A stretch of 24,000 nt of DNA, from contig CAXBML010000003.1 in assembly GCA_963976875.1 (NCBI GenBank), forward strand, positions 165,726 through 189,725. Direction: 5' to 3'. Below are positions 1 through 23,629 of this stretch, piece after piece; positions within the stretch are counted from its first letter, which is position 1, and each line of letters opens with the position of its first letter. Below the pieces are notes generated by a model. That model was not told the DNA's origin. It made no database searches and saw only the letters and a program-made list of their open reading frames with translations. The stretch is from an uncultured Coxiellaceae bacterium. GTDB lineage: Bacteria; Pseudomonadota; Gammaproteobacteria; Berkiellales; Berkiellaceae. Both the position numbers and the translations under genes were made by a program.

Positions 1-1377
1 GAACAATTCTTTACAAGGTACCCTAATCAAACAAAATTTGGTAGAAAAGACCCTAGGAATGGTATAGAGCATTCGTTTATCAATGTTAATGGTACGATTT
101 ATGCGAAAAAGACTGGAGAGGCGGTTGGTGAGGGTAACTTCGGAAAAGTTAAAATTGTTCAAAATCGAGCCGGTGAAAACTTTGCAGTGAAAGTTGAAGG
201 TCGTAGTGTCCGCGGGCAAAATGATCCCGAAACTAAAATATTAACTATTTTGGGAGAGTTACAAGGCGAAGCGGACAGAGCGTATGGGAAAAATTTTAAA
301 GGTCGATACGCTAGTAACAAACTGTATACGGTGATGAAGTTGCAGGAAGGACATGAACTGCATGATGAGCTTTACTTTGATAAAGATATGAATCAGCGTA
401 AAAATACGCTTTCGCCTCAACAACGTTTAATGGCTGCCATTAAGTCTGCTGAAGCTATTGACCATTTACATCAACATAGAATTATTCATGCGGACATTAA
501 GCCGCAAAATTTCATGGCAAATGTCAAAGGTGACATGATTACCGTTGGTGCTATAGATTTTGGTTTCTCTATGATTTTGGAAGAAGGGCGTTCAGAAGTG
601 AATGACAAAGCTAAAGGATCCCCAATATATATTGCACCTGAAATAGCAAGGTTTGATGATAATTGGAATTGTACATATGCGGGCGATCCAGCAAAATATT
701 CATTTGCATCAGATGTTTATGCGCTTGGCATGATGTTTAAAGAAGACTTCCAGTTAGATTTAGGGAATGAATTTTATGAAAAGCTTTTAAATGAAAGTCC
801 ATCTGAAAGACCCGATATGTCACAATTGTTAAGTAAACTTTGCGCTAAGCTTGAAGAGCAGCCAAATTTAAGTGCTCAAGCTAAAGAAACGATCTATGAA
901 CACAAAAAACCTGCTTTAGACATCATTTTATCAAAAGGTTTACAGGAATTAAATGATCAATATGAGGGGAAAAGTAAGTCTAGAGCAAATTCTAATGTTG
1001 GAAAATGGGCTTCAAATATGCATAAAAAAGCGGGAAAATCTTTATTTGGTAAAGGCAAAAAACGAGAAGACCAACTCGCAAAAATTAATGATGCAATACA
1101 AACTTTAAATAAAAGTGAGTTGAAGGATCTGAGTGATAAAGATAAGGCGGAATTTTTATATGCTGTTCTTACAGATATTGAGGAGCAGATAGGGGCAGAG
1201 CATAACACCCATCGTTCCGGTATGGCTGAGATGGTTGGTGATTATAAACAAGCGCTTGCAGCGCAATTTAAAGATAACCTTGATATTTCACCAGCTAATA
1301 TTTTGGAAAAACTACAGCTATTAGAAGCTCAGGTTGAAGGTGTGAAATCTGAACGCTCATCTGGCTTAACAAGATGA
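1..1377 (+). CDS. Eukaryotic-like (Hanks-type) Ser/Thr protein kinase, 5' end cut by window edge; probable secreted effector
   Basis: Frame 1 is open from nt 1, with no stop before the GTG at 187 used by the ORF track. The upstream part encodes the glycine-rich loop GEGNFGKV (nt 127-150) and the VAIK-type lysine (FAVKV). Downstream motifs are the catalytic loop HRIIHADIKPQNF, DFG (AIDFGFS), APE (YIAPEIA) and subdomain IX SDVYALG. The last ~150 aa form a charged, helical non-kinase tail. Confidence 0.85.
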   Translation, partial: EQFFTRYPNQTKFGRKDPRNGIEHSFINVNGTIYAKKTGEAVGEGNFGKVKIVQNRAGENFAVKVEGRSVRGQNDPETKILTILGELQGEADRAYGKNFKGRYASNKLYTVMKLQEGHELHDELYFDKDMNQRKNTLSPQQRLMAAIKSAEAIDHLHQHRIIHADIKPQNFMANVKGDMITVGAIDFGFSMILEEGRSEVNDKAKGSPIYIAPEIARFDDNWNCTYAGDPAKYSFASDVYALGMMFKEDFQLDLGNEFYEKLLNESPSERPDMSQLLSKLCAKLEEQPNLSAQAKETIYEHKKPALDIILSKGLQELNDQYEGKSKSRANSNVGKWASNMHKKAGKSLFGKGKKREDQLAKINDAIQTLNKSELKDLSDKDKAEFLYAVLTDIEEQIGAEHNTHRSGMAEMVGDYKQALAAQFKDNLDISPANILEKLQLLEAQVEGVKSERSSGLTR

Positions 1378-2010: not shown

Positions 2011-3273
2011 ATGATTATGCAATCTCTGGCAACATCTAATGGAAACAACTGTTTATTTCATTGTTTTACGCATGTACTGTTTAACTTGCCAGAAGGGCAA
2101 TATAATCAGGTAAAACAAACGCAAGGCTACAATAAATTACTGGAAAATTTTAAAGGTTATTATGGGTTGGCTACAGTGCCTACTGAAGAAGAGATTAGGG
2201 AGCTCAACAATACTTTTTCAGATCCTTTGGAACGAGAGGCTGTTTGGGGGCCTGTACTTAGACAAATGTTGCGAAATGAATTTTCAGATGTTGGCATTAC
2301 AGAAGTTAGTTTAATTGCAGATGAGGATTTTGCAAAGCTTTTAGAACTATTTGAATTTAACATAACGGTTGAGCATCCATATGATGAGTTGGCGCCACCC
2401 ATAAAACATGAGGCTGTAGAGACACCTATTTTTACGCTTGAGGTTAGTCATATTCGTGAAGGGGGAGGTCATTATAATTTTGCTTACCCGAATGATGATG
2501 ACAATACTAAAGCTGGGGCACATAATGCCAAAGTTGTCATCAATCATGATACACACCAAGCAGATTTCAGTCATACCCAATTTGCAGAGTTTAACGACAT
2601 TGTAGGAGCCGATGAACGTAGTACTTATGTCAAAGATATTGTGCGAGAAAAATTATTGCCTCCCTCTCCTCTAGGGTTTGTACCGCTTGTAAGGGAGGAG
2701 GATGAATTGTCTGCTGAAGTAGATGACGTTATTGAACTTAAAGCTCGTCACAGCCAAGAGAACGACAAAGACATACCTGAAATTGAGATGGAAAATGGAT
2801 TCCCTAAAGCATTTATGGATATGTTACCTGACCTATTCCCTAAAGACGCTTGGGACCTGAACATAGAAGACGGAAGTATTGAGATAGATGATAAATTTGA
2901 TGACGATAGATACATCACAATAGAGAAAGAAGACTATGGTGTTAGCTTCTCTGGTCCAACCAGTAACTTTGACGATATTATACGTGCGGCAAAAGCCTAT
3001 GATACAGCTTTAGGGGACGATGCGGGGATAGAGTATGAGTTAGAGGCTGGGAATAAAGAGCAGGCGATTGAATTTTTACAAAAAATGAAAGCCGCAGGTA
3101 TGAATTTTGACTCTGTTACCAGTATGATCATAGATGGAGAAAGCTATGACGAAGCAGAAACCCAAACGTTCATTGCCGAAGCCCTTGGGCTTGATTTACT
3201 CGATGCGGCCCCTGAAGCATTAGGTGCAGATGAAGGCGCGGATAGGAGAAACCGTCGAGGCTTTAATAAGTAA
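2011..3273 (+). CDS. OTU-like cysteine protease (putative deubiquitinase-type effector) with an acidic C-terminal domain
   Basis: AGGA lies 7 nt upstream of the ATG. The N-terminal SNGNNCLFHCF resembles the OTU catalytic Cys motif DGNCLFRA. A WG motif (EAVWGPVLRQML) follows, and the His motif is IFTLEVSHIREGGGHYNFA (OTU ..HY[ND]..), about 140 aa after the Cys. The C-terminal ~200 aa are very Asp/Glu-rich. Confidence 0.6.
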   Translation: MIMQSLATSNGNNCLFHCFTHVLFNLPEGQYNQVKQTQGYNKLLENFKGYYGLATVPTEEEIRELNNTFSDPLEREAVWGPVLRQMLRNEFSDVGITEVSLIADEDFAKLLELFEFNITVEHPYDELAPPIKHEAVETPIFTLEVSHIREGGGHYNFAYPNDDDNTKAGAHNAKVVINHDTHQADFSHTQFAEFNDIVGADERSTYVKDIVREKLLPPSPLGFVPLVREEDELSAEVDDVIELKARHSQENDKDIPEIEMENGFPKAFMDMLPDLFPKDAWDLNIEDGSIEIDDKFDDDRYITIEKEDYGVSFSGPTSNFDDIIRAAKAYDTALGDDAGIEYELEAGNKEQAIEFLQKMKAAGMNFDSVTSMIIDGESYDEAETQTFIAEALGLDLLDAAPEALGADEGADRRNRRGFNK

Positions 3274-3293: not shown

Positions 3294-3884
3294 CTAAAAG
3301 CAACTCGCCATATCTTTAACTTCATTGGGGTCTGTATTTTCTTTTAAGACGTTCGCCCATACTTGCATCTGGTCACCACGGCCAGATTCTTCTGATATCT
3401 TTTTCATGCTAAACTGAGCTGCTAGATTTCCTGCTAAGGCTAGCCCACCAATTTTTCCTTGCAAACAGCGATCAAAAGCCTGTTTAGCTGTGGAAGGATT
3501 GCCTGATTCTAAAACAGAGTAATGTAACACCAGCACACAATCTGCTGCAATTTGATTGACCGCATAAATATCTGGTAGCTGACACTTGGGGTCGCTTACT
3601 TTATTATTTAAAGCGGCTTTATAGCTATTGACGATATTCGCCGCCATATTAGGATTTTTGATATTGTTGTTTGGCCCTTGCAGGCTTTGTATTACACAGC
3701 TAGCCTCAATTCCATCGTTTGGTACACCACAAGATTCTAGAGCTGACATAAGTTGGCTGCGTGTTTCGGCATCAGCTTGGTGGGTTTTGACACTGGATAA
3801 GGTCTCGTTATAAAAAGCAGCTTGACATAAAGTTGAAAAACAAAGTAGTAAAGCAGCTGAAGTTAGGTTTTTAGTTATAGTCAT
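3294..3884 (-). CDS. Secreted/periplasmic hypothetical protein (Sec signal peptide, several Cys)
   Basis: 196-aa ORF. The N-terminus MTITKNLTSAALLLCFSTLCQA|AFYNE has the n-h-c organisation with a CQA cleavage-type site. The mature part contains 6 Cys. No family was recognised. Confidence 0.6.
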   Translation of the reverse strand: MTITKNLTSAALLLCFSTLCQAAFYNETLSSVKTHQADAETRSQLMSALESCGVPNDGIEASCVIQSLQGPNNNIKNPNMAANIVNSYKAALNNKVSDPKCQLPDIYAVNQIAADCVLVLHYSVLESGNPSTAKQAFDRCLQGKIGGLALAGNLAAQFSMKKISEESGRGDQMQVWANVLKENTDPNEVKDMASCF

Positions 3885-4821: not shown

Positions 4822-4888
4822 GTAGTATTTAGTATAAAGTTCACCTTCAAAATTAGTATACCAATACGTGCAAAAAACAGGAATGACT

Positions 4889-6046
4889 ATGCCTTCGAAC
4901 CCATCAACCATAGTGCAAGCAAGAAAGTATAAAGACGCATCAATAAAAAGTTACACAGATTACTTTGTTTCGTTTTGTGTTATGACTGAGGGTGCCAACC
5001 CAATGGGGCACAGTTGTATGCTCATTTCTCAGCTGGATCATCGGCAAGGTAAAACAGCCAGAGTAGAAGTGATCAGTGCGTTAGGTTTATACAGTCGGTA
5101 TATGCCAATTTTAGGCTTTAAACCTTATGGCGTGGCAAAAATTAAGCTTGAAGATATGGCTTACATTGCTAACGCAAAAGGGTTGGTTCATGCAACGTAT
5201 CAAATAAGCAAAAAAGATGTCGAGGTGCTACTGGATACTTTTTATCAAGATAAACTCAAAATTGAACAACACGAGGATTCAACTGATTTTAAATCGCCAT
5301 CAGTACCGATGTTTAATGTTTTTAAAAAAAAGAATTGTAAAAAATATGTTTTAGAGTGCTTGAATCGTATCGGCATTAATACAAGGCATTTAAGTAGTTT
5401 TATGGAGATTCCAATTCTAAACTCTTTAGAATCTATGGTTATTTTAGAAGAAGGTAATGGCAGTGAAAAGGCTTATTATTGGGGATCGCCTATATCTTTT
5501 AAGGCAAAGAATGACAATGAAACTTGTCGATTAAATCATGATCTACAAGGAAAGTATGCCAGCCTGTATTATATATGCTCTAGAATAAAAAAATTGCAGG
5601 CTATTATTCAATTACGCCAAGTCGAATTAGCCAGCTTAGGGAAAACAGTTTCCGAAATAAATAAAATTGAAGCTGATCTACTAGCGCTCATGGGTGAGAT
5701 TGAAAATCTTGCGGAATATCCTAAACTCATAACAAAGGAAAAGATCTTTACATTAAGTAGAAAGTTAACATACTGCATTGATGGTCATATTAAGAACTTA
5801 AGTATTAAACAGTTAGAGCCAAACCTGATTTGTGTTTTAACCGATGTTTTGCAAGAATTACTGTTATATATGAAACAATTGTTTTGCCCGGCAGATAAGC
5901 GCAGTCAAGCAAAGCTTAATACCATGGATAGAGAAGTATTTGATAAAATTCAAACGACAGATGCTCAAATGAGGGAGCAAGATAAGGAAAGGAACTATGC
6001 ACCTGACTTGCTACCAAACGACTCATATAGGCGCGCGACAGTCTAA
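4889..6046 (+). CDS. Hypothetical protein; N-terminal domain possibly a permuted-papain-fold (PPPDE/DeSI-like) cysteine peptidase, C-terminal half helical or coiled-coil
   Basis: The ORF is open from the GTG at 4868. ATG 4889 has AGGA 6 nt upstream and ATG 4883 is an alternative start. The His context is FCVMTEGANPMGHSCMLIS. About 109 aa later, the Cys context FKKKNCKKYVLECLNRIGI resembles the NCNhF...L.g..IP motif of PPPDE peptidases. The 3' end overlaps the next gene by 50 nt. Confidence 0.55.
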   Translation: MPSNPSTIVQARKYKDASIKSYTDYFVSFCVMTEGANPMGHSCMLISQLDHRQGKTARVEVISALGLYSRYMPILGFKPYGVAKIKLEDMAYIANAKGLVHATYQISKKDVEVLLDTFYQDKLKIEQHEDSTDFKSPSVPMFNVFKKKNCKKYVLECLNRIGINTRHLSSFMEIPILNSLESMVILEEGNGSEKAYYWGSPISFKAKNDNETCRLNHDLQGKYASLYYICSRIKKLQAIIQLRQVELASLGKTVSEINKIEADLLALMGEIENLAEYPKLITKEKIFTLSRKLTYCIDGHIKNLSIKQLEPNLICVLTDVLQELLLYMKQLFCPADKRSQAKLNTMDREVFDKIQTTDAQMREQDKERNYAPDLLPNDSYRRATV

Positions 6047-6743
6047 CCAAGATAGTTTTGGCTTTGATGCTCGAGATAATTGGGGCTGTTTTGTTGTGGC
6101 TGATGGATTAGGGGGGCACTATCGTGGAGAAATAGCCTCTCAGTTTGTCACCCAATCCCTCATTAAACTTGCCCCAAAGTTTGCGAGCGCCATAGAAACA
6201 GACCCCATGCTGGGCATGAAAGATTTTGTATCACAGGCTATTAGCAAAGCACAAAAAGATATTATTAAAAAATATCAAGAAGTGGATACTCAAACAACCA
6301 TTGCTATTGCTTGGCTAAACCAAGATCACTTCATTGCAGCACATGTTGGCGACTCTAGAATATATAAATTAAACAAACAAGCGGTCATTTGGCGCACGCC
6401 AGACCACACCCAAGTACAAGCTCTATTTGAACAGGGAAAAATTACTGAGGCAGTATTCTCTACCCACCCTTTGCAGAACCAACTACTCAGATCGATTTGC
6501 ACATATGAGCCCCCGGAAGTTGATATTGTCGTACAACCCCCACTTGCTAGCAATGAATCGCTAGTACTATGCACCGATGGTTTTTGGTCTGGTTGTGAGC
6601 CGGAAGATTTCATAAAACTTTCTAGAAATCATGGTTCTACAGAGAAAAAAGTGTCAGATTTAATCGATAGAATTCTTAAGCAGCAGGGCGAAGACTGTGA
6701 TAATATTACGGTTCAAGTTGTGAAAAGCCTGCCCACCCTTTAA
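5997..6743 (+). CDS. PP2C-family (PPM) Ser/Thr protein phosphatase
   Basis: AAGGAAAGGAA (5984-5994) lies just upstream of the ATG. Motifs seen are GARQSNQDSFGF, FVVADGLGGH, AAHVGDSRIY, LCTDGFW and DNITVQVV, all typical of bacterial PP2C/Stp phosphatases. Confidence 0.9.
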   Translation: MHLTCYQTTHIGARQSNQDSFGFDARDNWGCFVVADGLGGHYRGEIASQFVTQSLIKLAPKFASAIETDPMLGMKDFVSQAISKAQKDIIKKYQEVDTQTTIAIAWLNQDHFIAAHVGDSRIYKLNKQAVIWRTPDHTQVQALFEQGKITEAVFSTHPLQNQLLRSICTYEPPEVDIVVQPPLASNESLVLCTDGFWSGCEPEDFIKLSRNHGSTEKKVSDLIDRILKQQGEDCDNITVQVVKSLPTL

Positions 6744-6925: not shown

Positions 6926-8257
6926 ATGTCCATTTATGGGGCTGATTTGCAAGAGGCCAAAAAGCCATTTTCAACTGAGCAAATTAATCATTTTTTGCGT
7001 TTTTGTATTCAATATGCAGACTTTACTCAGGAAGGGCTACTGCGTAAGGATGGTCCTGACACGTTAATTCAGCATTGGCACGATAACGTGTTGCCTCTAC
7101 TAGCTCAAAAAGATGTCACGATGGAGTATTTGGCAGAAAAATTTTTAAAGGTGGAAGCTGACGTTGCTTCTGCTGATTTAATAAGCTCAGCATCCTCTTC
7201 TAGAAGTGCCGCAAGCTCAGGGAAAAACGATAATACAATCCACCGCACACTCTTACAAGTATTTAAGCAGTTAACGTCAAGGCATACTCTGTTTTTAGAA
7301 AATGAAAGTGGCCAAATATTACAAAGACACTTTCTGAGACAGTTACAAAATTATTTTTGGCCAATGTTGTTGTATATGGATGAAAAATTTTCAGATACAG
7401 AATGTGTGCGTGAAAAAAAAGATGAATATTACAATATAAATGCAATAGAGCTATTTAAAGAAAGTATCGCTTTTTTATTATGCACTGGGCACATTGACTT
7501 AGCCGAGACCTTTCATAATATATTATATATTGGGTATTTGTGTCATTGCGGCAATAAAATTGCTAATACACCATTTGTGGTGGGTAAACTGATAGCCCCT
7601 TCTTTGCTTTTTAAGTCGTTTGATATAGCTGGTAAAATACTACCTGACGAGAATTTTTGGGGTAAAAAAGAAGTGACTGTGTGTGCGGAAATGATCTCAG
7701 CTGCAATCACATCAACGTGGTTTCAAGTGCCATTTTCCGAGCAAAAATTTGCATATAGATCAGATATGACACTAGAGAGTTTAACTGAGAGTGGAATCTC
7801 TTTAGAGCGAGTGGCTCACTCAAGGGCGAAGCGCCGTTGTTCAGATGCCCAAGAGCAAGTTGTCCGGGTAGAAAATCCACTATATGCTCGAAACAGTAGT
7901 GCGCACGGTAGCCTTATTTCAAAAATGCGCGCTTTAGATTTAGACAAAGTGACAGTAAGTGCTGAACTTAAGCTTAAAGGTACGCACTCTCCAACGCCGA
8001 GTGTCTCTAGCAGCGCATCAGATTCCGAGCCTGAATATACTGGTGTTGGAATAGGTTGTGCCTCCGATTCAAAGTCTCTCTATGTGCCTGTATTGCCACT
8101 AGAACTTTTAGGCGAGATGCCGTTACCATCTCCAATCTTAAGACTGAGAAATGTTCAAGGGGAGGGGAAAGGTTCGGATTCTGACATTGACTCAAAATCC
8201 GATGAGATTTATAAAGATAAAAAGGAGAAAAAAGTCCGCTTTTGGCGTAAAAAATAA
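6926..8257 (+). CDS. Hypothetical effector-like protein with weak RhoGAP-like motifs, Ser-rich linkers and a polybasic C-terminus
   Basis: 443-aa ORF with a good RBS and promoter. FTQEGLLRKDG resembles the RhoGAP arginine-finger motif EGIFRxSG. NTIHRTLLQVFKQL resembles d.h.va.lLK.fL, and ANTPFVVGKLIAPSLL resembles N..NLa.vfgPtLl. Ser-rich tracts are SSASSSRSAASSG and SPTPSVSSSASDS. The protein ends KKEKKVRFWRKK. Confidence 0.55.
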   Translation: MSIYGADLQEAKKPFSTEQINHFLRFCIQYADFTQEGLLRKDGPDTLIQHWHDNVLPLLAQKDVTMEYLAEKFLKVEADVASADLISSASSSRSAASSGKNDNTIHRTLLQVFKQLTSRHTLFLENESGQILQRHFLRQLQNYFWPMLLYMDEKFSDTECVREKKDEYYNINAIELFKESIAFLLCTGHIDLAETFHNILYIGYLCHCGNKIANTPFVVGKLIAPSLLFKSFDIAGKILPDENFWGKKEVTVCAEMISAAITSTWFQVPFSEQKFAYRSDMTLESLTESGISLERVAHSRAKRRCSDAQEQVVRVENPLYARNSSAHGSLISKMRALDLDKVTVSAELKLKGTHSPTPSVSSSASDSEPEYTGVGIGCASDSKSLYVPVLPLELLGEMPLPSPILRLRNVQGEGKGSDSDIDSKSDEIYKDKKEKKVRFWRKK

Positions 8258-9590: not shown

Positions 9591-10706
9591 TTAATCTATT
9601 GGGGCTGCCGATTTTGCAAAAGGGTGCTCCAACCCTTCCAATGCTTTGTTGACGTGCTCACGAATACTATCGTGGAGTTTGTCATTTTGATCGTGTGTTG
9701 GTGGCTCAGGTGCCAATTTCACCGTTTGGTGAGTCTCTATAGACTGAATGGCAGCATTTAAGATACGCATAACCTGGAGTCCTTCGTAGGCATCCGTAAT
9801 GGGCGTTTTATGCTTAGCAATACAATCCACAAAGTGTTGGCATTCGTTTAACAAAGGCTCTTGAGGGGACAAAGCAATAGTCTGTGGCTTTGGATCGCAA
9901 GGTTGTGGTTGACCGTCTATCCATTCTACGGGATAAGGGTATAGCTTAAGTTTTTCTGACCAATCAGCACAATCGTCAAAAATGGCCATCGCCTTTTCAC
10001 CCACAACCACTAACTTTTGTTCTTTGAAAGGATGTAGCCAGGAAACAAATATATGTGCCTGTACACCACTTGGAAAATTTAAATGGGTGCTGGTAATATC
10101 GGCAACCGTATGTTCCAAGAAATTTGAGCCCATGGCGGAAACATGCTCGGGCATTTCTTTGGTCAAAGATAAAATCATAGAAACGTCATGTGGGGCATAA
10201 TCCCACCAGATATTTTCTTCGGTTCTAAATTTGCCCAGGTTAAGCCTATTGGAACAGATGTATTGTAGCTTGCCTAAGGTGCCGTTATTATTTAGTTGCT
10301 TTAGGGCATTAAAAGCCAGATGGTACTGGAGTAGATGTCCAACCATTAAAATGCAGTCATTTTCCTTTGCTAACTTATAAAGTTCGCATGCATTATCTAT
10401 TGCGAGTGCAAGTGGTTTTTCAACGAAGGTATTTTTGCCGGCAATAAGACAGCGTCGAGTATATTCATAATGTGTAGCAGAAGGCGAAGCAACTAACACA
10501 CCACTGATAGTTTGGTCTTTAATTATTTCATCAAAGCTTAAATGTGGTACTTCAAATGTTTGGCTAAACTCTTTTGCGCGTTCTATGGACTTGTCACAGA
10601 TTGAGTGCAAGTTGCCCATTTTATGCAAAACGCGGATAAGGTTTTTGCCCCAGTTACCACAGCCAACAACTGCTATTTTGATATCTTTATTTGATTCAGC
10701 CAACAA
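9591..10706 (-). CDS. Gfo/Idh/MocA-family NAD(P)-dependent oxidoreductase (sugar-nucleotide dehydrogenase, WbpB-like)
   Basis: The N-terminal Rossmann motif is KIAVVGCGNWGKN and the family EKP motif is FVEKPLA. The gene is co-oriented with, and 55 nt upstream of, the aminotransferase gene. Only TTG starts are available (10706 or 10703). Confidence 0.85.
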   Translation of the reverse strand: MLAESNKDIKIAVVGCGNWGKNLIRVLHKMGNLHSICDKSIERAKEFSQTFEVPHLSFDEIIKDQTISGVLVASPSATHYEYTRRCLIAGKNTFVEKPLALAIDNACELYKLAKENDCILMVGHLLQYHLAFNALKQLNNNGTLGKLQYICSNRLNLGKFRTEENIWWDYAPHDVSMILSLTKEMPEHVSAMGSNFLEHTVADITSTHLNFPSGVQAHIFVSWLHPFKEQKLVVVGEKAMAIFDDCADWSEKLKLYPYPVEWIDGQPQPCDPKPQTIALSPQEPLLNECQHFVDCIAKHKTPITDAYEGLQVMRILNAAIQSIETHQTVKLAPEPPTHDQNDKLHDSIREHVNKALEGLEHPFAKSAAPID

Positions 10707-11040
10707 AATTAAACCTTATTTAAACTGCTTTTTCTTCTTAAAAATACACCATGAGAAAAGCTCTGAGCTTAGAGATGCATGTATATAAGAGAGTATTTTA
10801 TATGAGAGTTATACAAGAAGTCTGAATTCTAGCAAATTTAGACCTACTAACTCAAATTTATTCGAGCGTTATTTACGGTAGATGATACGTTTAATTGCAA
10901 TAAAATCCTACCAAACGCAAAAAAAAAATGGCATTACAGGCAGTTGTTCAACTAATTGTGAAAAGGTGAGACGTGCCCTCTCAAACACAGAGCTCAAGAG
11001 GGGGCATTGAATATTGAAGCTTAAAACACGGCTGGGTGGA

Positions 11041-11289
11041 TTAGAAACAACCCCATTCGTCACAGATAACCACATCATAGTAACCATAATCATAGTAACC
11101 ATAATCATAGTAACCATAATAACCACCACCATAGTATGGATATGGATCATAAACAACGGGGGCATAGTAATAAGGTGATGATAACGCGCCTAGCAAAGCG
11201 GCTGTTGTTACGATCGCCGTGGTTGCCGCAAGAACTTCAACTGAGCCACCTGAAACGGCTTTTGCTTCTAGCATGGATAATGATTTCAT
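11041..11289 (-). CDS. Double-glycine-leader peptide precursor with Tyr/Gly-rich core (candidate bacteriocin/RiPP-like peptide)
   Basis: AGGA lies 6 nt upstream of the ATG. The leader MKSLSMLEAKAVSGG fits LSxxELxxIxGG (L-12, S-11, E-8, V-4, GG). The core has a hydrophobic A/T/L segment, then 17 Tyr in a 34-aa stretch (PYYYAPVVYDPYPYYGGGYYGYYDYGYYDYGYYD), and ends ICDEWGCF. Confidence 0.6.
   Translation of the reverse strand: MKSLSMLEAKAVSGGSVEVLAATTAIVTTAALLGALSSPYYYAPVVYDPYPYYGGGYYGYYDYGYYDYGYYDVVICDEWGCF
11076..11120. repeat. Three perfect tandem copies of a 15-bp unit inside the peptide gene
   Basis: CATAGTAACCATAAT occurs at 11076-11090, 11091-11105 and 11106-11120. On the coding (minus) strand this reads GAT TAT GGT TAC TAT, giving DYGYY x3. 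Confidence 0.9.
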
Positions 11290-11440
11290 TATAAATCCTA
11301 ATTTTTTTGGTTACTTCAAGAATGAGTACAATAACAAAAAGTCGAATGAGCTCAAATACAAATGCCGTCTAAACCGACAGACGGGAGGTGCTAATGGACA
11401 AAGGGGACTCATAAAGAGATAGTCGGCTTTGTAACTTGAT

Positions 11441-11958
11441 GCTCTGTTGCCCATTTATCTTGGCTGTCCCGAATTATCTTGGCTGTCCCGAATTATCTTG
11501 GCTGCCCCGAATTATTTTGGCTGTCCCGATTATTTTGGCTATCCGGAATTATCTTGGCTGTCCCAATTATCTTTGGCTGTCCCAATTATCTTTGGCTGTC
11601 CCAATTATCTTTGGCTGTCCCAATTATCTTGGCTGTCCCAATTATCTTGGCTGTCCCGAATTATCTTGGCTGTCCCGAATTATCTTGGCTGTCCCGAATT
11701 ACCTTGGCTGTCCCGATTATCTTGGCTGTCCCGATTATCTTGGCTGTCCCGAATTATCTTGGCTGCCCCATTTATCTTGGCTGTCCCGAATTATCTTGGC
11801 TGTCCCGAATTATCTTGGGTGTCCCGAATTATCTTGGCTGTCCCGATCATCTTGGCTGTCCTAATTATCTGGTTGTTCCAATTATCTTCTAACTTAATTA
11901 TATTTTTTCAATTATCTTTGAGAGTCCTGGATTATCTTAGCTGTTCCCATTATTTTTA
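11441..11958. repeat. Tandem array of ~23 direct 18-19 bp repeats (consensus TTGGCTGTCCCGAATTATC) with degenerate copies at both edges
   Basis: Units were delimited by hand from 11460 to 11886, for example 11460-11478, 11479-11497 and 11498-11516. Three unit variants occur: ..CCCGAATTATC (19 bp), ..CCCGATTATC (18 bp) and ..CCCAATTATC(T) (18-19 bp). The variants sit in local blocks. Degenerate copies lie at 11441-11459 and 11887-11958. There are no spacers. Confidence 0.95.
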
Positions 11959-12200: not shown

Positions 12201-12740
12201 ATGGCACCAAAGAAGAAAAAGGCAACGAAAGCTCGAAAGGCTACTGCAACGAAGAAGAAAACCACTGCAAAACGCAAAGCACCTGCTCGCAAGAAAGTGG
12301 CTAAAACTAAAGCAAAAACCAAGAAAAAAGTAACACGCAAGAAAACTGCGACCAAAGTTGCTTCAAGAGCTAAAAAAACAACAGCGACTAAGAAAGCGGT
12401 TGCTAATGTTGTTAAGTTGCCAACTTCAGTTGTTTCTCAGAAACAAACTAAAGCACAAATTTTCACTGAAATCTCAGAAAATACAGGCGTATCTAAAGCC
12501 GATGTTAAAAATGTATTTGCAGCATTGAGAAACTTAGTAGAGCGTCACTTGAAAACTCGTGGTTCAGGACAGTTCATTGTTCCTGAATTGGGTCTAAAAG
12601 TTCGTCGCGTTGCCAAAAAAGCAACTAAAGCTAGAAAAGGCAGAAACCCTTTCACTGGCGAAGAAATCATGATCTCAGCGAAGCCAGCTCGCAAAGCTGT
12701 TAGAGCGACTGTACTCAAGAACCTAAAAGAAGTTGTATAG
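12201..12740 (+). CDS. HU/IHF-fold DNA-binding protein with histone-H1-like Lys/Ala/Thr-rich N-terminal extension
   Basis: GGAGG lies 9 nt upstream of the ATG. The first ~70 aa are K/A/T-rich (MAPKKKKATKARKATATKKKTTAKRKAPARKK...). The C-terminal ~95 aa carry HU signatures, namely KAQIFTEISENTGVSKADVKNVFAAL and the arm GRNPFTGEEIMISAKPARKAV. Confidence 0.85.
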   Translation: MAPKKKKATKARKATATKKKTTAKRKAPARKKVAKTKAKTKKKVTRKKTATKVASRAKKTTATKKAVANVVKLPTSVVSQKQTKAQIFTEISENTGVSKADVKNVFAALRNLVERHLKTRGSGQFIVPELGLKVRRVAKKATKARKGRNPFTGEEIMISAKPARKAVRATVLKNLKEVV

Positions 12741-13895: not shown

Positions 13896-15080
13896 CTAAC
13901 AATCACACATTATAATATTATTCATCATTGCTAGTTCATCGTGTATTGGTAACAAGTGCTGCGGCTCCATGAATTCTGAGCTTGGTGCTTCTACAGTTGT
14001 CAGGATAGGACTAGAGCTAGAGGTCGTTATATTATTGGGGGTGAAGTTTTTTTCAATTAAGGTCTCTGGAAACAACTCTGCAAGTAAATTGATTAAATCA
14101 TATGGGGCATCCTGTCCCTGAGCTTGAATTTGTGTCTGATTAAACTCTGTAATAAAACTGGTATCTATATTATGCTCGTTCGCAAAATCAACGAGCTGTT
14201 TAAATTCTGTAATTTCAGCTTGAGAAGATTCATCTTTGCCTTCTATTAGTGGTGCAACAACAGAAGCCTTGAAATAATAAGTACCTTCTTTGTATTCGCA
14301 ATGCTCCCATAGGAGCTGGTTTGGCAGTACTAATAATTCACATTCAGATTCAAAGTGAGATAAGCCAGAAATATCCTTACCATAGGCGCCATCAAAAGTA
14401 ATAAGGCTTCCATTGCTAAAAGCGTCGCCTATATATGAGTCGAAAGATGTACTAATAAATGCCAGGTTTTCGGATACAGGGAAGTCGCTGTTGATTAAAG
14501 CCATGCGATGTTCTATTTCTTCAAACGAGGTTGAGCTTTCGCCCCTAAAGGTTTGGCCAGAATAGTCTACTTCGGGCATAATTTTATTTAAGCCCGAACT
14601 TAAAAATGCAGTATTAAGTAAAAGTTTATTCGCTGAATTGTTTATACCATTATCATTATAAAAGTCAGGATGTATACGTCCAGTTTTGCCATAAAGGAAA
14701 CTATTAATGCTAGCGTATTCTGAACCGGTATAGTTTTGTATGGCCGTTCTTTCAGCCTCGTTTATGGCAGAATATTTTGGGTCGGTATTTGAGTTGTATC
14801 TATAGCCGTAATACCCAAAATCATTATGAGCATATTTAGCGGTAAATTTTTCAGCGTCATGCGCATCCAGCGTTATATGGTTTAAATTTGCTTTTTGCGT
14901 TAACTCTGAGATATTTATTTTAATATTTCCAACAGTGGCATATAGGTTTTCTTTGCCCTGTATGTTGTTTTCCAACGTATAATTTATTTTATTTTCTGCA
15001 TGCAAGGCACACTTTATAAATAATTCGTATTTTTGAGTATGAATACTTTTATTAAGAGGACCATTCATTAAACCGTGCAT
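13896..15080 (-). CDS. R-S-E class mono-ADP-ribosyltransferase-like protein (C3/VIP2-type toxin domain), probable effector
   Basis: ERTAIQNYTGSEYASINSFLYG matches the a...YT...Y..IN..LR region. SGQTFRGES supplies the Arg, LAFISTSFD is the STS motif, and SHFESECELLVLP is the ExE motif. These occur in the canonical order and spacing. The C-terminal ~110 aa are unrelated and the protein ends NIIMCDC. Confidence 0.75.
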   Translation of the reverse strand: MHGLMNGPLNKSIHTQKYELFIKCALHAENKINYTLENNIQGKENLYATVGNIKINISELTQKANLNHITLDAHDAEKFTAKYAHNDFGYYGYRYNSNTDPKYSAINEAERTAIQNYTGSEYASINSFLYGKTGRIHPDFYNDNGINNSANKLLLNTAFLSSGLNKIMPEVDYSGQTFRGESSTSFEEIEHRMALINSDFPVSENLAFISTSFDSYIGDAFSNGSLITFDGAYGKDISGLSHFESECELLVLPNQLLWEHCEYKEGTYYFKASVVAPLIEGKDESSQAEITEFKQLVDFANEHNIDTSFITEFNQTQIQAQGQDAPYDLINLLAELFPETLIEKNFTPNNITTSSSSPILTTVEAPSSEFMEPQHLLPIHDELAMMNNIIMCDC

Positions 15081-20106: not shown

Positions 20107-20225
20107 ATCATAAAAATTAAAGTGATCTACAGCAATTGAGAATCATTTAGAACTGTAGATAATTCTTGCTAAATGCGTAGTAACAACGTTAGAATTTGTC
20201 ATCGTTTTTAATAAAGGGATATCCA

Positions 20226-20648
20226 ATGAAAAAGAATGAACCAATCAAAAACATTATGTCTTCTAAATTAGTGTTTGCGACTATCAACAGTAAAATCTCT
20301 GAAGTAAAGAGTCTGATGCAAGAGAATCATATTCATCATGTTCCTGTCGTCTCTGGTAAAAAATTAATTGGCTTGGTTAGTCGAGTTGATCTTTTAAGAT
20401 CTTCTTTTAGTGATTTATTTGTTAAAGAAGATAAAGCTTCGGCAGATCAGTTGGACAGTGTTGCTTCCATTGAAGACGTGATGACCAGGGATATTAAAAC
20501 CCTTTCAGTTTCAAGTTCTGTACGTGATGCGGCCTTGATATTGTTAGGAAATGATTTTAATTCATTACCTATTATTGACAGCAATGAAGAGTTAGCTGGA
20601 ATTGTTACATCAAAAGATATTACCAGGTATTTGATTGAGCAGCTATAA
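20226..20648 (+). CDS. CBS-domain pair protein
   Basis: ATG 20226 has AAGGGA 6 nt upstream; the track start at 20196 is a TTG. The two CBS repeats are IHHVPVVSGKKLIGLVSRVDLL and FNSLPIIDSNEELAGIVTSKDI. Confidence 0.85.
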   Translation: MKKNEPIKNIMSSKLVFATINSKISEVKSLMQENHIHHVPVVSGKKLIGLVSRVDLLRSSFSDLFVKEDKASADQLDSVASIEDVMTRDIKTLSVSSSVRDAALILLGNDFNSLPIIDSNEELAGIVTSKDITRYLIEQL

Positions 20649-20714: not shown

Positions 20715-21158
20715 TTATTTTTTCTCTTTAAAGCGTTTTAATGGAACAGTTAACACATCACAGTGTGCATGTGACAATACATAACTAGCCGTTGAACCAA
20801 GCAAAACACCTATGCCATGAGCACCATGGCTTCCTAAGATAATTAAGTCTGATTTCAATTCATCAGCCATGGTAATAATAGATTTTTTTGCATGTCCAGT
20901 AGATAAATGCTGGTGTTTTTTCGCAATACCATAAGTATTTGAAAACTGATGTAAATGAGTTAACGCTTCTTCTTCCAGTTGCTTGTTAAGCTCGCCTATG
21001 TAATAAAACCCACCGCCATAAGTGCCAACCGGCTCTATAACATGAACAATGTTAAGTGTGGCTCCATGAATGCGCTCTAAATCTTTTGCAACCTCGCAGA
21101 CATGTTTACTATCCTTACCTAAATCTGTTGCAAACAAAATATTTTTATATAATGACAT
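20715..21158 (-). CDS. Universal stress protein (UspA family), paralogue 1
   Basis: 147 aa. The sequence shows NILFATDL...LNIVHV...DLIILGSHGAHGIGVLLGSTASYVLSHAHCDVLTVP, which contains the USP nucleotide-binding G-x2-G-x9-G(S/T) motif. Confidence 0.9.
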   Translation of the reverse strand: MSLYKNILFATDLGKDSKHVCEVAKDLERIHGATLNIVHVIEPVGTYGGGFYYIGELNKQLEEEALTHLHQFSNTYGIAKKHQHLSTGHAKKSIITMADELKSDLIILGSHGAHGIGVLLGSTASYVLSHAHCDVLTVPLKRFKEKK

Positions 21159-21236: not shown

Positions 21237-21680
21237 TTAGTCTTGATCATCAAACCGTTTTAACGGAACGGTTAAAACATCACAATGTGCATGAGACAAG
21301 ACATATGTAGCAGTTGAGCCCAATAATACGCTGATACCTCGAGCGCCGTGGCTACCGAGAACAATTAAATCGGCTCCCAGTTCATCGGCCATATCAATAA
21401 TGGCGTGTTTGGGGTGGCCTTTGCATAAAAATTGCTGCTTAGGCGGGATTCCACTAGCATTAGAATATTGGCTAAGGTGCTCTAGGGCTTCCTTTTCAAT
21501 TTGCTCATTCATATCTTCGATATAGTAATAATTACCGCCATAAGCACCAATAGGCTCTATGACATGAACAATATTAAGTGTTGCACCATGTACCCGCTTT
21601 AACTCTTTAGCAATATCACATACATGCTGGCTGTCTTGACCTAAATCCGTTGCAAATAGAATATTTTTATATAATGACAT
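21237..21680 (-). CDS. Universal stress protein (UspA family), paralogue 2
   Basis: 147 aa and collinear with paralogue 1, with roughly two-thirds identical residues by eye. The N-terminus MSLYKNILFATDLG and the C-terminal block YVLSHAHCDVLTVPLKRF are identical in both. Confidence 0.9.
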   Translation of the reverse strand: MSLYKNILFATDLGQDSQHVCDIAKELKRVHGATLNIVHVIEPIGAYGGNYYYIEDMNEQIEKEALEHLSQYSNASGIPPKQQFLCKGHPKHAIIDMADELGADLIVLGSHGARGISVLLGSTATYVLSHAHCDVLTVPLKRFDDQD

Positions 21681-22443: not shown

Positions 22444-23154
22444 ATGGGGATAGAGAATCCTAAGCTTAAACTCCGACCTTTGCCTGTAGAAAAGCAGGCT
22501 AGGCAGCTTGTTTCTAAGTATTTGGGAACCCACCATTCTGCCAGTTCAACACCGTTTTGGGTTGAAAGAGTTTCAGAGCTCAAGAATAAGAAAAGACATA
22601 GGTTACAACCTGAAGATTTTGGTGCTCGCAAACTTACATCTTTTGAACAAACATTTGGTAAGCAAACTAGCCATGCTGGAGTGAGCTATCAAATGCTTCA
22701 TCCCCAAGATAAGCCGGAAAATAATTCAAAGTCTGCTGATGGAAAGCATCTTTATCAATTTAGGCTAAATTCAATAAAGTTAAAATTACTGACTGCGCAA
22801 GCTGGTGTTAATCCTAATTTAGGCTTATCTGTGGAGCAGTTATTAAAAATGGAACTTTTGGGTGGTAGTAACACTGAGCAATGGCTTAAAAAATATATCA
22901 TTTTGCTTCATGGTGGCTTGAATCCTCATTACAACTATGGAGAGTTTGCTTTTGGTTATGGCGAGCCTGGACAATTGGATCGCCTTGTTTTGCAAGAACA
23001 AATGGGCAATGCCCCTGATTTAGAGCCTAAGTTAGCTCAGGATTGCGCCAGTTTAGGATTGGCGCCGCCTATGCCGGTGGAGCAGCAAACACCAAGAGCA
23101 GCGCCCAGACCTGATGAGCATTATCGGCCACGCTTAACGCCTGATCATTCATAA
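22444..23154 (+). CDS. Hypothetical protein with Pro/Ala-rich C-terminal tail (no family recognised)
   Basis: 236-aa ORF with a strong RBS and promoter-like elements. No motif was recognised. The C-terminus is LGLAPPMPVEQQTPRAAPRPDEHYRPRLTPDHS. Confidence 0.6.
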   Translation: MGIENPKLKLRPLPVEKQARQLVSKYLGTHHSASSTPFWVERVSELKNKKRHRLQPEDFGARKLTSFEQTFGKQTSHAGVSYQMLHPQDKPENNSKSADGKHLYQFRLNSIKLKLLTAQAGVNPNLGLSVEQLLKMELLGGSNTEQWLKKYIILLHGGLNPHYNYGEFAFGYGEPGQLDRLVLQEQMGNAPDLEPKLAQDCASLGLAPPMPVEQQTPRAAPRPDEHYRPRLTPDHS

Positions 23155-23191
23155 GCTTATAAATTTTAACTGTTCAAACATGGAATATAAA

Positions 23192-23629
23192 ATGTCTACG
23201 AAAGCGATTGTTAAAGATATAATGTCAACAGAGCTAATTACTATCGAGCGTTATGCTAATTTCTCTGAACTACGGAACCTATTAGAAAAAAATGATATCC
23301 ATCATATTCCTGTCGTTGATGGTGAGCAGTTGCTTGGTATTTTGAGCACCACGGATGTGTTGAAATATAGTTTTGGTGCTATGGGTGTTGGGCAAGATAA
23401 AAAGCTTGATAAATCTTTAGATCAAAATATTTCTTTAGATGCGATTATGCAAACGCAAGTTGTCACTGTTACCCCAGATACGCCTATTATGGCGGCCGCA
23501 GAATTGTTGCTATATAGCAATTTTAACGCCTTGCCTGTAGTGGACGCTTCTCAAAAACTAGTTGGTATATTAACGACAAAAGATTTTATTGGTTATATGC
23601 TTAAGTTTGAAGGGAAGCTAAAAGATTAG
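23192..23629 (+). CDS. CBS-domain pair protein (paralogue of 20226..20648)
   Basis: ATG 23192 has GGAA 6 nt upstream and gives MSTKAIVKDIMS, which parallels MKKNEPIKNIMS of the paralogue. ATG 23180 is the longer alternative. The CBS repeats are IHHIPVVDGEQLLGILSTTDVL and FNALPVVDASQKLVGILTTKDF. Confidence 0.85.
   Translation: MSTKAIVKDIMSTELITIERYANFSELRNLLEKNDIHHIPVVDGEQLLGILSTTDVLKYSFGAMGVGQDKKLDKSLDQNISLDAIMQTQVVTVTPDTPIMAAAELLLYSNFNALPVVDASQKLVGILTTKDFIGYMLKFEGKLKD

Follow-up and report, generated by a model that had tools for sequence, protein, structure and literature searches.

A conserved small gene for a candidate double-glycine-leader peptide with a tyrosine-rich core in an uncultured gammaproteobacterium

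In a stretch of 24,000 nucleotides from an uncultured Coxiellaceae bacterium (contig CAXBML010000003.1, positions 165,726 to 189,725; the whole stretch is referred to here as the window), a short gene on the minus strand at positions 11041-11289 encodes a peptide of 82 amino acids. Judged by comparison with a syntenic orthologue, this gene is real, protein-coding and under purifying selection, and its leader motif and overall architecture are conserved in a second species. For its product we favour, with about an even chance of being right, a small secreted double-glycine-leader peptide precursor resembling the class II microcins or the unmodified class II bacteriocins. The sequence of the core is new and the kind of peptide, one with a double-glycine signal and class-II-microcin-like, is already known; we place the new core within a known kind because class II microcins are abundant and highly diverse in sequence (PMC12219008). 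What sets the peptide apart is its extreme tyrosine content, the absence of basic residues, the orphan position of its gene and the intracellular-lifestyle lineage in which it occurs.

The peptide gene and its orthologue

In the European Nucleotide Archive (ENA), contig ERZ3421489 NODE_49 (217,883 bp) starts with ~24 kb that are identical to the window, and the minus-strand open reading frame (ORF) 11041-11289 is also a called gene there. An earlier note, made from the sequence alone, had described this frame and its translation, and our 82-residue product agrees with it exactly. The well-spaced AGGA ribosome-binding site that it reported is likewise present, at 11299-11296 and with a gap of 6 nt to the ATG. 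The parts of the gene are as follows.

11041-11289, minus strand: precursor peptide gene, 82 amino acids, stop codon included; ORF confirmed by translation
11245-11289, minus strand: putative double-glycine-type leader MKSLSMLEAKAVSGG, codons 1-15, with predicted cleavage after Gly15
11176-11244, minus strand: hydrophobic Ala/Thr/Leu/Val helix SVEVLAATTAIVTTAALLGALSS, codons 16-38, from Kyte-Doolittle and AlphaFold2 predictions
11071-11172, minus strand: acidic tail rich in Tyr, Gly, Asp and Pro, codons 40-73, with 17 Tyr in 34 residues and including VVxDPYPY
11047-11064, minus strand: CDEWGC (C-x4-C), codons 76-81, absent from the orthologue
11296-11299, minus strand: ribosome-binding site AGGA, 6 nt 5' of the ATG at 11289, read from the sequence

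An exhaustive HMMER scan of 1.84 billion protein cluster representatives returned one true relative (P0003, 72 amino acids; E = 1e-4, 63% identity over the matched stretch) together with two repetitive false positives. P0003, with the sequence MKNLSTQETQAISGGFAEVVIATALVTTAVIGSLYRGPSLVYDSYVVMDPYPYGYYYDYGYDYYYEDYVVYY, is encoded on a 1,091-bp contig (L084, run SRR30000421) of a second uncultured species, where the next gene downstream is orthologous to the GFO/IDH/MocA oxidoreductase gene of the window (9591-10706, minus strand). Since both peptide genes precede orthologous oxidoreductase genes, they are syntenic orthologues. Over the 70 aligned codons the proportion of synonymous differences (pS) was 0.75, that is saturated, and the proportion of nonsynonymous differences (pN) 0.31, giving a pN/pS of about 0.4; the differences at codon positions 1, 2 and 3 numbered 22, 20 and 45, respectively. 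The leader codons alone gave a pS of 0.88 and a pN of 0.23. The neighbouring oxidoreductase differs between the same two species with a pS of 0.79 and a pN of 0.095, which indicates that the relationship between the two genomes is an old one.

The orthologue keeps the start codon, and its ribosome-binding site, GAAGGA, stands at the same distance of 6 nt from the ATG. None of the overlapping ORFs in alternative frames is conserved there, and the flanking non-coding DNA upstream is conserved much less than the peptide. As signs against a gene the earlier note had named a frame that is not kept in relatives or that varies freely as the internal repeats change; the orthologous ORF has stayed intact despite several insertions and deletions that change the length of the tyrosine tail.

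The leader is among the best-conserved parts of the peptide, with 9/15 residues identical. Its invariant positions are M1, K2, L4, S5, E8, A11, S13, G14 and G15, and A11, S13, G14 and G15 are preserved through synonymous codon changes. Within the hydrophobic helix E18-V19, A22, T24-A25 and V27-T28-T29-A30 are invariant (motif EV..A.T..VTTA), and in the tail V-V-x-D-P-Y-P-Y and much of the Tyr/Asp/Gly tract are common to both peptides, the tail of the orthologue containing 15 Tyr in 34 residues. The orthologue ends in ...DYVVYY and lacks the terminal cysteine pair; thus C-x4-C is not a defining feature of the family.

Tyrosine makes up 21% of the 82-residue peptide, as against 3.7% of the window's other proteins. 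The count of 17 Tyr in 34 residues made in the earlier note holds for residues 40-73, and the CDEWGC that it placed at the end occupies residues 76-81, the terminus reading CDEWGCF; this motif may be a lineage-specific disulfide loop. Inside the tyrosine tail a perfect tandem DNA repeat (15 bp x 3.1, 11074-11120) codes for YDYGY units. The predicted core has 67 residues, a mass of 7,546 Da and an isoelectric point (pI) of 4.05, and contains no Lys, Arg or His; that of the orthologue has 57 residues and 6,723 Da. The segment of codons 16-38 is predicted to be membrane-active or transmembrane, the highest Kyte-Doolittle mean over 19 residues being 1.84 in the window peptide and 1.93 in the orthologue. 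AlphaFold2 gave a helix of low confidence over residues 6-36 only, with a mean predicted local distance difference test score (pLDDT) of 48, too poor for a fold search, and a disordered tail (pLDDT near 37-42).

The statement that the core belongs to no recognised bacteriocin class stands, in that Pfam, NCBIfam, Protein Data Bank (PDB) and protein searches revealed no related described family. Pfam and NCBIfam gave no match for the full window peptide or for its N-terminal pieces of 20, 34 and 39 residues, and the sequence search of the PDB gave none for the peptide. A word-indexed protein search with the window peptide found no relative, and with the two-sequence profile found P0003 only. Scans of genome-contig, metagenome-contig and viral-contig collections with the peptide or the profile were also negative. 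The peptide gene is confined to a narrow lineage.

A putative double-glycine leader and a proposed route of export

All of the leader positions listed in the earlier note (L-12, S-11, E-8, V-4, G-2 and G-1, counted back from the predicted cleavage site) are present in MKSLSMLEAKAVSGG. Both orthologues fit Motif 2, a broad double-glycine signal pattern from earlier work, <M..[KEQI]x[IL]x9G[GAS] (PMC12219008), and neither fits Motif 1 of the same work because position 2 is Lys and not Arg. As a background we took 32,304 small-ORF start sites from 1.15 Mb of unrelated bacterial DNA, among which 41 (0.13%) matched Motif 2 and 11 (0.034%) a strict double-glycine pattern. With ~0.16 strict-pattern matches thus expected per 24-kb window, the motif alone is weakly significant; what lifts it beyond chance is that the syntenic orthologue keeps it despite saturated synonymous sites.

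The comparison with colicin V (microcin V, MccV; gene product CvaC) points the same way. The colicin V sequence used has 100% identity to annotated cvaC genes; hhalign aligned residues 1-21 of the peptide to residues 1-21 of colicin V with E = 0.007, and the two leaders, MRTLTLNELDSVSGG and MKSLSMLEAKAVSGG, both of 15 residues, align position for position with 7/15 identical. Furthermore, the N-terminus of the orthologue matched 15/15 model positions of NCBIfam TIGR01847 (bacteriocin_sig). The cut-off of this model, 15.7 bits, was exceeded when the first 20 residues were scored by themselves (16.9 bits) but not when longer pieces were scored (14.7 or 13.5 bits). The orthologue also scored 16.1 bits (E = 0.007) against TIGR03949, a class IIb bacteriocin family, which is below the cut-off of 21.5.

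Several results weigh against a secreted double-glycine peptide. The leader of the window peptide itself went unmatched, even at E <= 10, by TIGR01847, by TIGR03949 and by the leader families of Pfam. At position -7, where double-glycine leaders usually carry a large hydrophobic residue, the orthologue has Thr and the window leader Ala. An uncleaved membrane anchor would account equally well for the lack of net charge in the leader and for the hydrophobic stretch behind it. The family has two members only, so that conservation is judged from a single comparison. In addition, class II microcin genes normally lie beside exporter and immunity genes. Our inspection of the neighbours covered the 24-kb window and the next ~8.6 kb (contig positions ~2 to 32,577), and within it we found no PCAT (C39-peptidase ABC transporter) or other C39 peptidase, no ABC transporter or HlyD-family membrane-fusion protein, no immunity gene and no second peptide gene; no maturase-type Pfam domain occurs in the window ORFs or the flanking called genes. 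The earlier note had seen no adjacent C39 exporter, immunity gene or maturase, and its observation now extends over this whole region. We therefore regard the N-terminus as a double-glycine leader that is supported, not proven, by the sequence: conservation, Motif 2, the colicin V alignment and the score of the orthologue speak for that part of the earlier note, and the failure of the window leader against the hidden Markov models (HMMs) speaks against it.

In the mechanism that we propose, the 15-residue leader (MK-x-LS-x2-E-x2-A-[VI]-SGG) would form an amphipathic helix recognised by a PCAT encoded elsewhere, and would be removed after Gly15 during one-step export through a type I system of PCAT, membrane-fusion protein and TolC. 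This would release a strongly acidic 67-residue peptide (7.5 kDa, pI about 4) that lacks basic residues. A modular organisation has been reported for the class II microcins MccV and MccH47, and by analogy the hydrophobic Ala/Thr/Leu helix at the N-terminus of the product may act as a membrane-active module and the fast-evolving Tyr/Asp/Gly tail as a surface or receptor-binding module, closed in the window's species by a Cys76-Cys81 disulfide. Cleavage and export by a PCAT are inferred, as are the parts given to the two modules and whatever activity the product may have, be it antibacterial, signalling or directed at a host. An exporter encoded elsewhere in the genome is plausible because predicted colicin-V-like C39 type I secretion systems (LB1SS) have been reported in 35% of Legionella species (PMC6959600) and type I secretion genes have been reported in Ca. 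Berkiella (PMC9803151).

The nearest known counterparts of the peptide are the class IIa microcins, colicin V among them. It shares with these a gene-encoded and probably unmodified product that is anionic and hydrophobic in its N-terminal part, its predicted mature mass of 7.5 kDa and its negative charge falling within the class II microcin range of 5-10 kDa (PMC10233263); with MccV the window peptide also shares a C-terminal cysteine pair. It differs from colicin V in that the cores have no sequence similarity, that of the window being Tyr-rich (21% Tyr) and not Gly/Ala-rich, in that its host appears to be a Berkiella-like effector-rich bacterium and not an enterobacterium, and from microcin signals in that Arg2 is replaced by Lys. 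Strictly taken, it falls outside the group in two respects, as neither a pair of genes for PCAT and membrane-fusion protein (cvaA/cvaB-type) nor an immunity gene (cvi-type) was found beside it.

With the lactobin A/cerein 7B family (TIGR03949) the peptide has in common a double-glycine leader and, behind it, a helix with many small residues (Ala, Thr, Gly, Ser), but it is anionic and not cationic and its long Tyr-rich tail has no counterpart there. We rejected class IIb membership, as the best score was 16.1 vs 21.5 bits and came from the orthologue only, the window peptide being unmatched, and as no gene for a partner peptide was found. The Legionella LB1SS (PMC6959600) and the bacteroidetocins, which have a 15-residue double-glycine signal and depend on PCATs (cited in PMC12219008), demonstrate that double-glycine signals and PCATs occur well outside the Enterobacteriaceae, including in relatives of the source organism. 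Within the region inspected no such exporter is linked to the peptide gene, and no LB1SS cargo resembles the peptide.

If the secreted-peptide reading is correct, double-glycine-signal peptides of the class II microcin type would extend to Berkiella- or Legionellales-like amoeba-associated bacteria, with a core unlike any described, half tyrosine over 34 residues, free of basic residues and evolving by in-frame repeat changes. The gene would then be an "orphan" cargo gene apart from its exporter, of a sort that context-dependent pipelines would miss. The practical value is modest, the peptide being a cheap candidate for existing MccV-based secretion screens, and the gene opens no long-standing question. 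It does illustrate that an ORF in a metagenome-assembled genome can be a real gene even when it is short and restricted to one lineage.

Alternative readings of the peptide

An uncleaved small bitopic inner-membrane protein, with residues 1-18 in the cytoplasm, residues 19-37 spanning the membrane, the acidic tyrosine tail in the periplasm and Gly-Gly acting as a helix break, is an alternative that we consider unlikely. The 19-residue Kyte-Doolittle means of both orthologues lie above the usual transmembrane threshold, AlphaFold2 modelled residues 6-36 as a single continuous helix, no exporter is nearby, the window leader fails the double-glycine HMMs, and the cysteine pair of the tail would suit an oxidising compartment. 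However, a cytoplasmic stub is not expected to retain L4, S5, E8, A11, S13, G14 and G15, and precisely these double-glycine consensus positions are among the best-conserved, through synonymous codon changes. Moreover, the leader of the orthologue reaches the TIGR01847 cut-off, and neither flank of the hydrophobic segment carries positive charges for fixing a topology. A leader followed by a helix is also the layout of Flp/Tad-type or type IV prepilin-like subunits, whose leader is cut by prepilin peptidase: the peptide has a ~15-residue leader ending in Gly, an x-x-E and a hydrophobic helix of ~20 residues, the orthologue reads G|FAEVV with Phe at +1, and the small-protein layout resembles that of Flp prepilins. 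The Glu, though, stands at +3 of the Gly-Gly pair and not at +5, and neither an EY nor a GLI motif is present. No Flp_Fap or N_methyl Pfam match and no NCBIfam prepilin domain match was obtained even at E <= 10, no tad or pil genes occur in ~34 kb, and the leader fits the double-glycine register instead; we regard this reading as very improbable.

Cross-linking or other modification of the tyrosine-rich core had been raised in the earlier note. The peptide would then be the precursor of a ribosomally synthesised and post-translationally modified peptide (RiPP), its core being altered before or after removal of the leader by an enzyme encoded elsewhere, for example through C-C or C-O cross-links of the radical-SAM or P450 type or through dityrosine. 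The extreme Tyr density (17/34), the repeated YDYGY units and the conserved DPYPY would suit it, and some RiPP classes also use double-glycine leaders; NHLP-type systems are mentioned in this connection (PMC6959600). The neighbours, by contrast, are sugar-modifying enzymes, effector-like proteins and housekeeping genes, and maturase domains, whether radical-SAM, P450, YcaO, lanthionine-synthetase-like or other, are absent from the ~34 kb around the gene. RiPP precursors are normally clustered with maturases. In addition, the two orthologues differ in how many Tyr motifs they have and in how these are spaced, which is ill-suited to a fixed cross-link pattern. The cross-linking idea, which is based on composition, found no support, and we rate it as quite improbable. 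It is a similarly long shot that the Tyr/Asp/Gly tail is a functional novelty, be it as the founding case of a new RiPP class, in which an unlinked enzyme would form Tyr-Tyr or Tyr-X cross-links by oxidation, or as a secreted low-complexity aromatic peptide that would act on an amoebal host (by metal binding, adhesion or condensate-like interactions) and not on competing bacteria; were either version true, the double-glycine leader would be used for a purpose beyond the classical bacteriocin. A non-functional ORF that is open by chance in a repeat-containing intergenic region could explain why there are no homologues outside one close lineage, why the sequence is of low complexity with an internal perfect DNA repeat and why Gammaproteobacteria bacterium 39-13 and Ca. 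Berkiella sp. have other genes at this position. Against it, the ORF, the start codon, the ribosome-binding site and the length class are kept in a second species despite saturated synonymous sites, the differences at third codon positions are twice those at positions 1 and 2 with a pN/pS of about 0.4, and neither the alternative frames nor, to a comparable degree, the upstream non-coding DNA are conserved, which leaves a chance ORF very improbable.

Flanking signals and genomic surroundings

Three further elements lie around the peptide gene on its own strand or between it and the next gene.

10976-11002, minus strand: GC-rich hairpin CCCTCTTGAGC-TCTGT-GTTTGAGAGGG, 39 nt past the stop codon, folding into an 11-bp stem
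11307-11321, minus strand: conserved upstream block TCTTGAAGTAACCAA, 18-32 nt before the ATG, 14/15 bases identical in the orthologue
11455-11888, no strand assigned: tandem array with ~23 copies of an 18-20-bp unit (minus-strand reading GACAGCCAAGATAATTCGG), in the gap that separates the peptide gene from the divergent HU-like gene

The hairpin at 10976-11002 has no adjacent U-tract and is likely a 3'-end or terminator structure. The orthologue has an equivalent, CCCTCTCCTG...GGAGAGGG, also 3' of its stop codon; the outer stem (CCCTCT/AGAGGG) is kept in both species, and the inner stem differs with its pairing preserved. As both species have such a GC-rich hairpin behind the gene, the peptide gene is probably monocistronic, a transcription unit of its own. 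The upstream block, which is surrounded by otherwise poorly conserved DNA, is a candidate promoter or 5' untranslated region element by its conservation; a scan for the sigma-70 consensus gave no match at the block, and an Rfam scan of the window was negative.

A second terminator-like hairpin on the peptide's strand, CCGTCTGTCGGTTTAGACGG followed by a T-rich run (11365-11384), lies between the repeat array and the peptide gene and has no conserved counterpart in the orthologous locus L084. The only small ORF adjacent to the peptide gene, at 11311-11454 (minus strand, 47 residues), was weighed as a possible immunity gene and discarded for want of conservation, no counterpart being present in the same locus.

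The peptide gene is accompanied by genes for a DegT aminotransferase and a GFO oxidoreductase (sugar modification), a Lys-rich HU-like protein, an esterase, an ADP-ribosyltransferase, a PP2C phosphatase, a 780-residue eukaryotic-like kinase, an M3 peptidase, universal-stress (Usp) and CBS proteins, and by several ORFs without Pfam domains. The ~8.6 kb past the window contain rpoS, nlpD, surE, ispF and ispD, so that out to ~32.6 kb there are housekeeping and effector-like genes only. When the oxidoreductase was used as a query against a collection of species genomes, the best identity was 56% and the nearest genomes, at 51-56% among the matches listed, included a Francisellaceae metagenome-assembled genome, Gammaproteobacteria bacterium 39-13 and Ca. 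Berkiella sp. The latter two share the synteny HU-like ... GFO-DegT-PP2C with the window; in their loci (L005 and L006) rimK, endonuclease I and other genes replace the peptide gene and the repeat array. From these matches we infer that the source is an uncultured effector-rich relative of Berkiella or of the Legionellales, in keeping with the intracellular-pathogen-like genome suspected in the earlier note.

The repeat array lies 166 bp upstream of the peptide gene and consists of head-to-tail units with length variants of 18, 19 and 20 nt. Its unit has 20 matches with <=2 mismatches vs 0.08 expected, and it is absent from all other loci examined. All three plus-strand frames are open throughout the array, and the 141-residue ORF that the gene caller placed there is probably spurious. 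The short-read contigs L003 and L084 break at or near the array, which might be a protein-binding array or a variable-number repeat.

Beyond the array, the gene at 12201-12740 (plus strand) encodes a protein of 179 residues with a Lys/Ala/Thr-rich, histone-H1-like N-terminal half and an HU/IHF domain (PF00216, E = 1e-13); its HU part has 66% identity to a gene of Gammaproteobacteria bacterium 39-13 (L005 5061-5540). The effector-like genes at 1-1377 (plus), 5997-6743 (plus) and 13896-15080 (minus) encode the 780-residue Ser/Thr kinase, the PP2C phosphatase and an exoenzyme-type ADP-ribosyltransferase, respectively, the kinase gene extending beyond the start of the window. They belong to a cluster of eukaryotic-like or effector-like genes, in which we also count several large ORFs without a Pfam domain (2011-3273, 3294-3884, 4868-6046, 6926-8257 and 22444-23154). 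Such clusters are typical of intracellular bacteria that have Dot/Icm effectors and resemble the Legionellales or Berkiella.

The intergenic DNA at 10826-10940 (minus strand), upstream of the GFO oxidoreductase gene, is a near-perfect match to L084 500-600 despite saturated synonymous sites and includes a promoter-like TTGAGT-18-TAGAAT with an extended TG; the sugar-modification operon may accordingly have a regulatory region or a 5' leader that is under constraint. Towards the other end of the window, two universal-stress-protein genes in tandem, equal in length (147 residues each; 20715-21158 and 21237-21680, minus strand), are found near genes for two CBS-pair proteins (20196-20648 and 23180-23629, plus strand).

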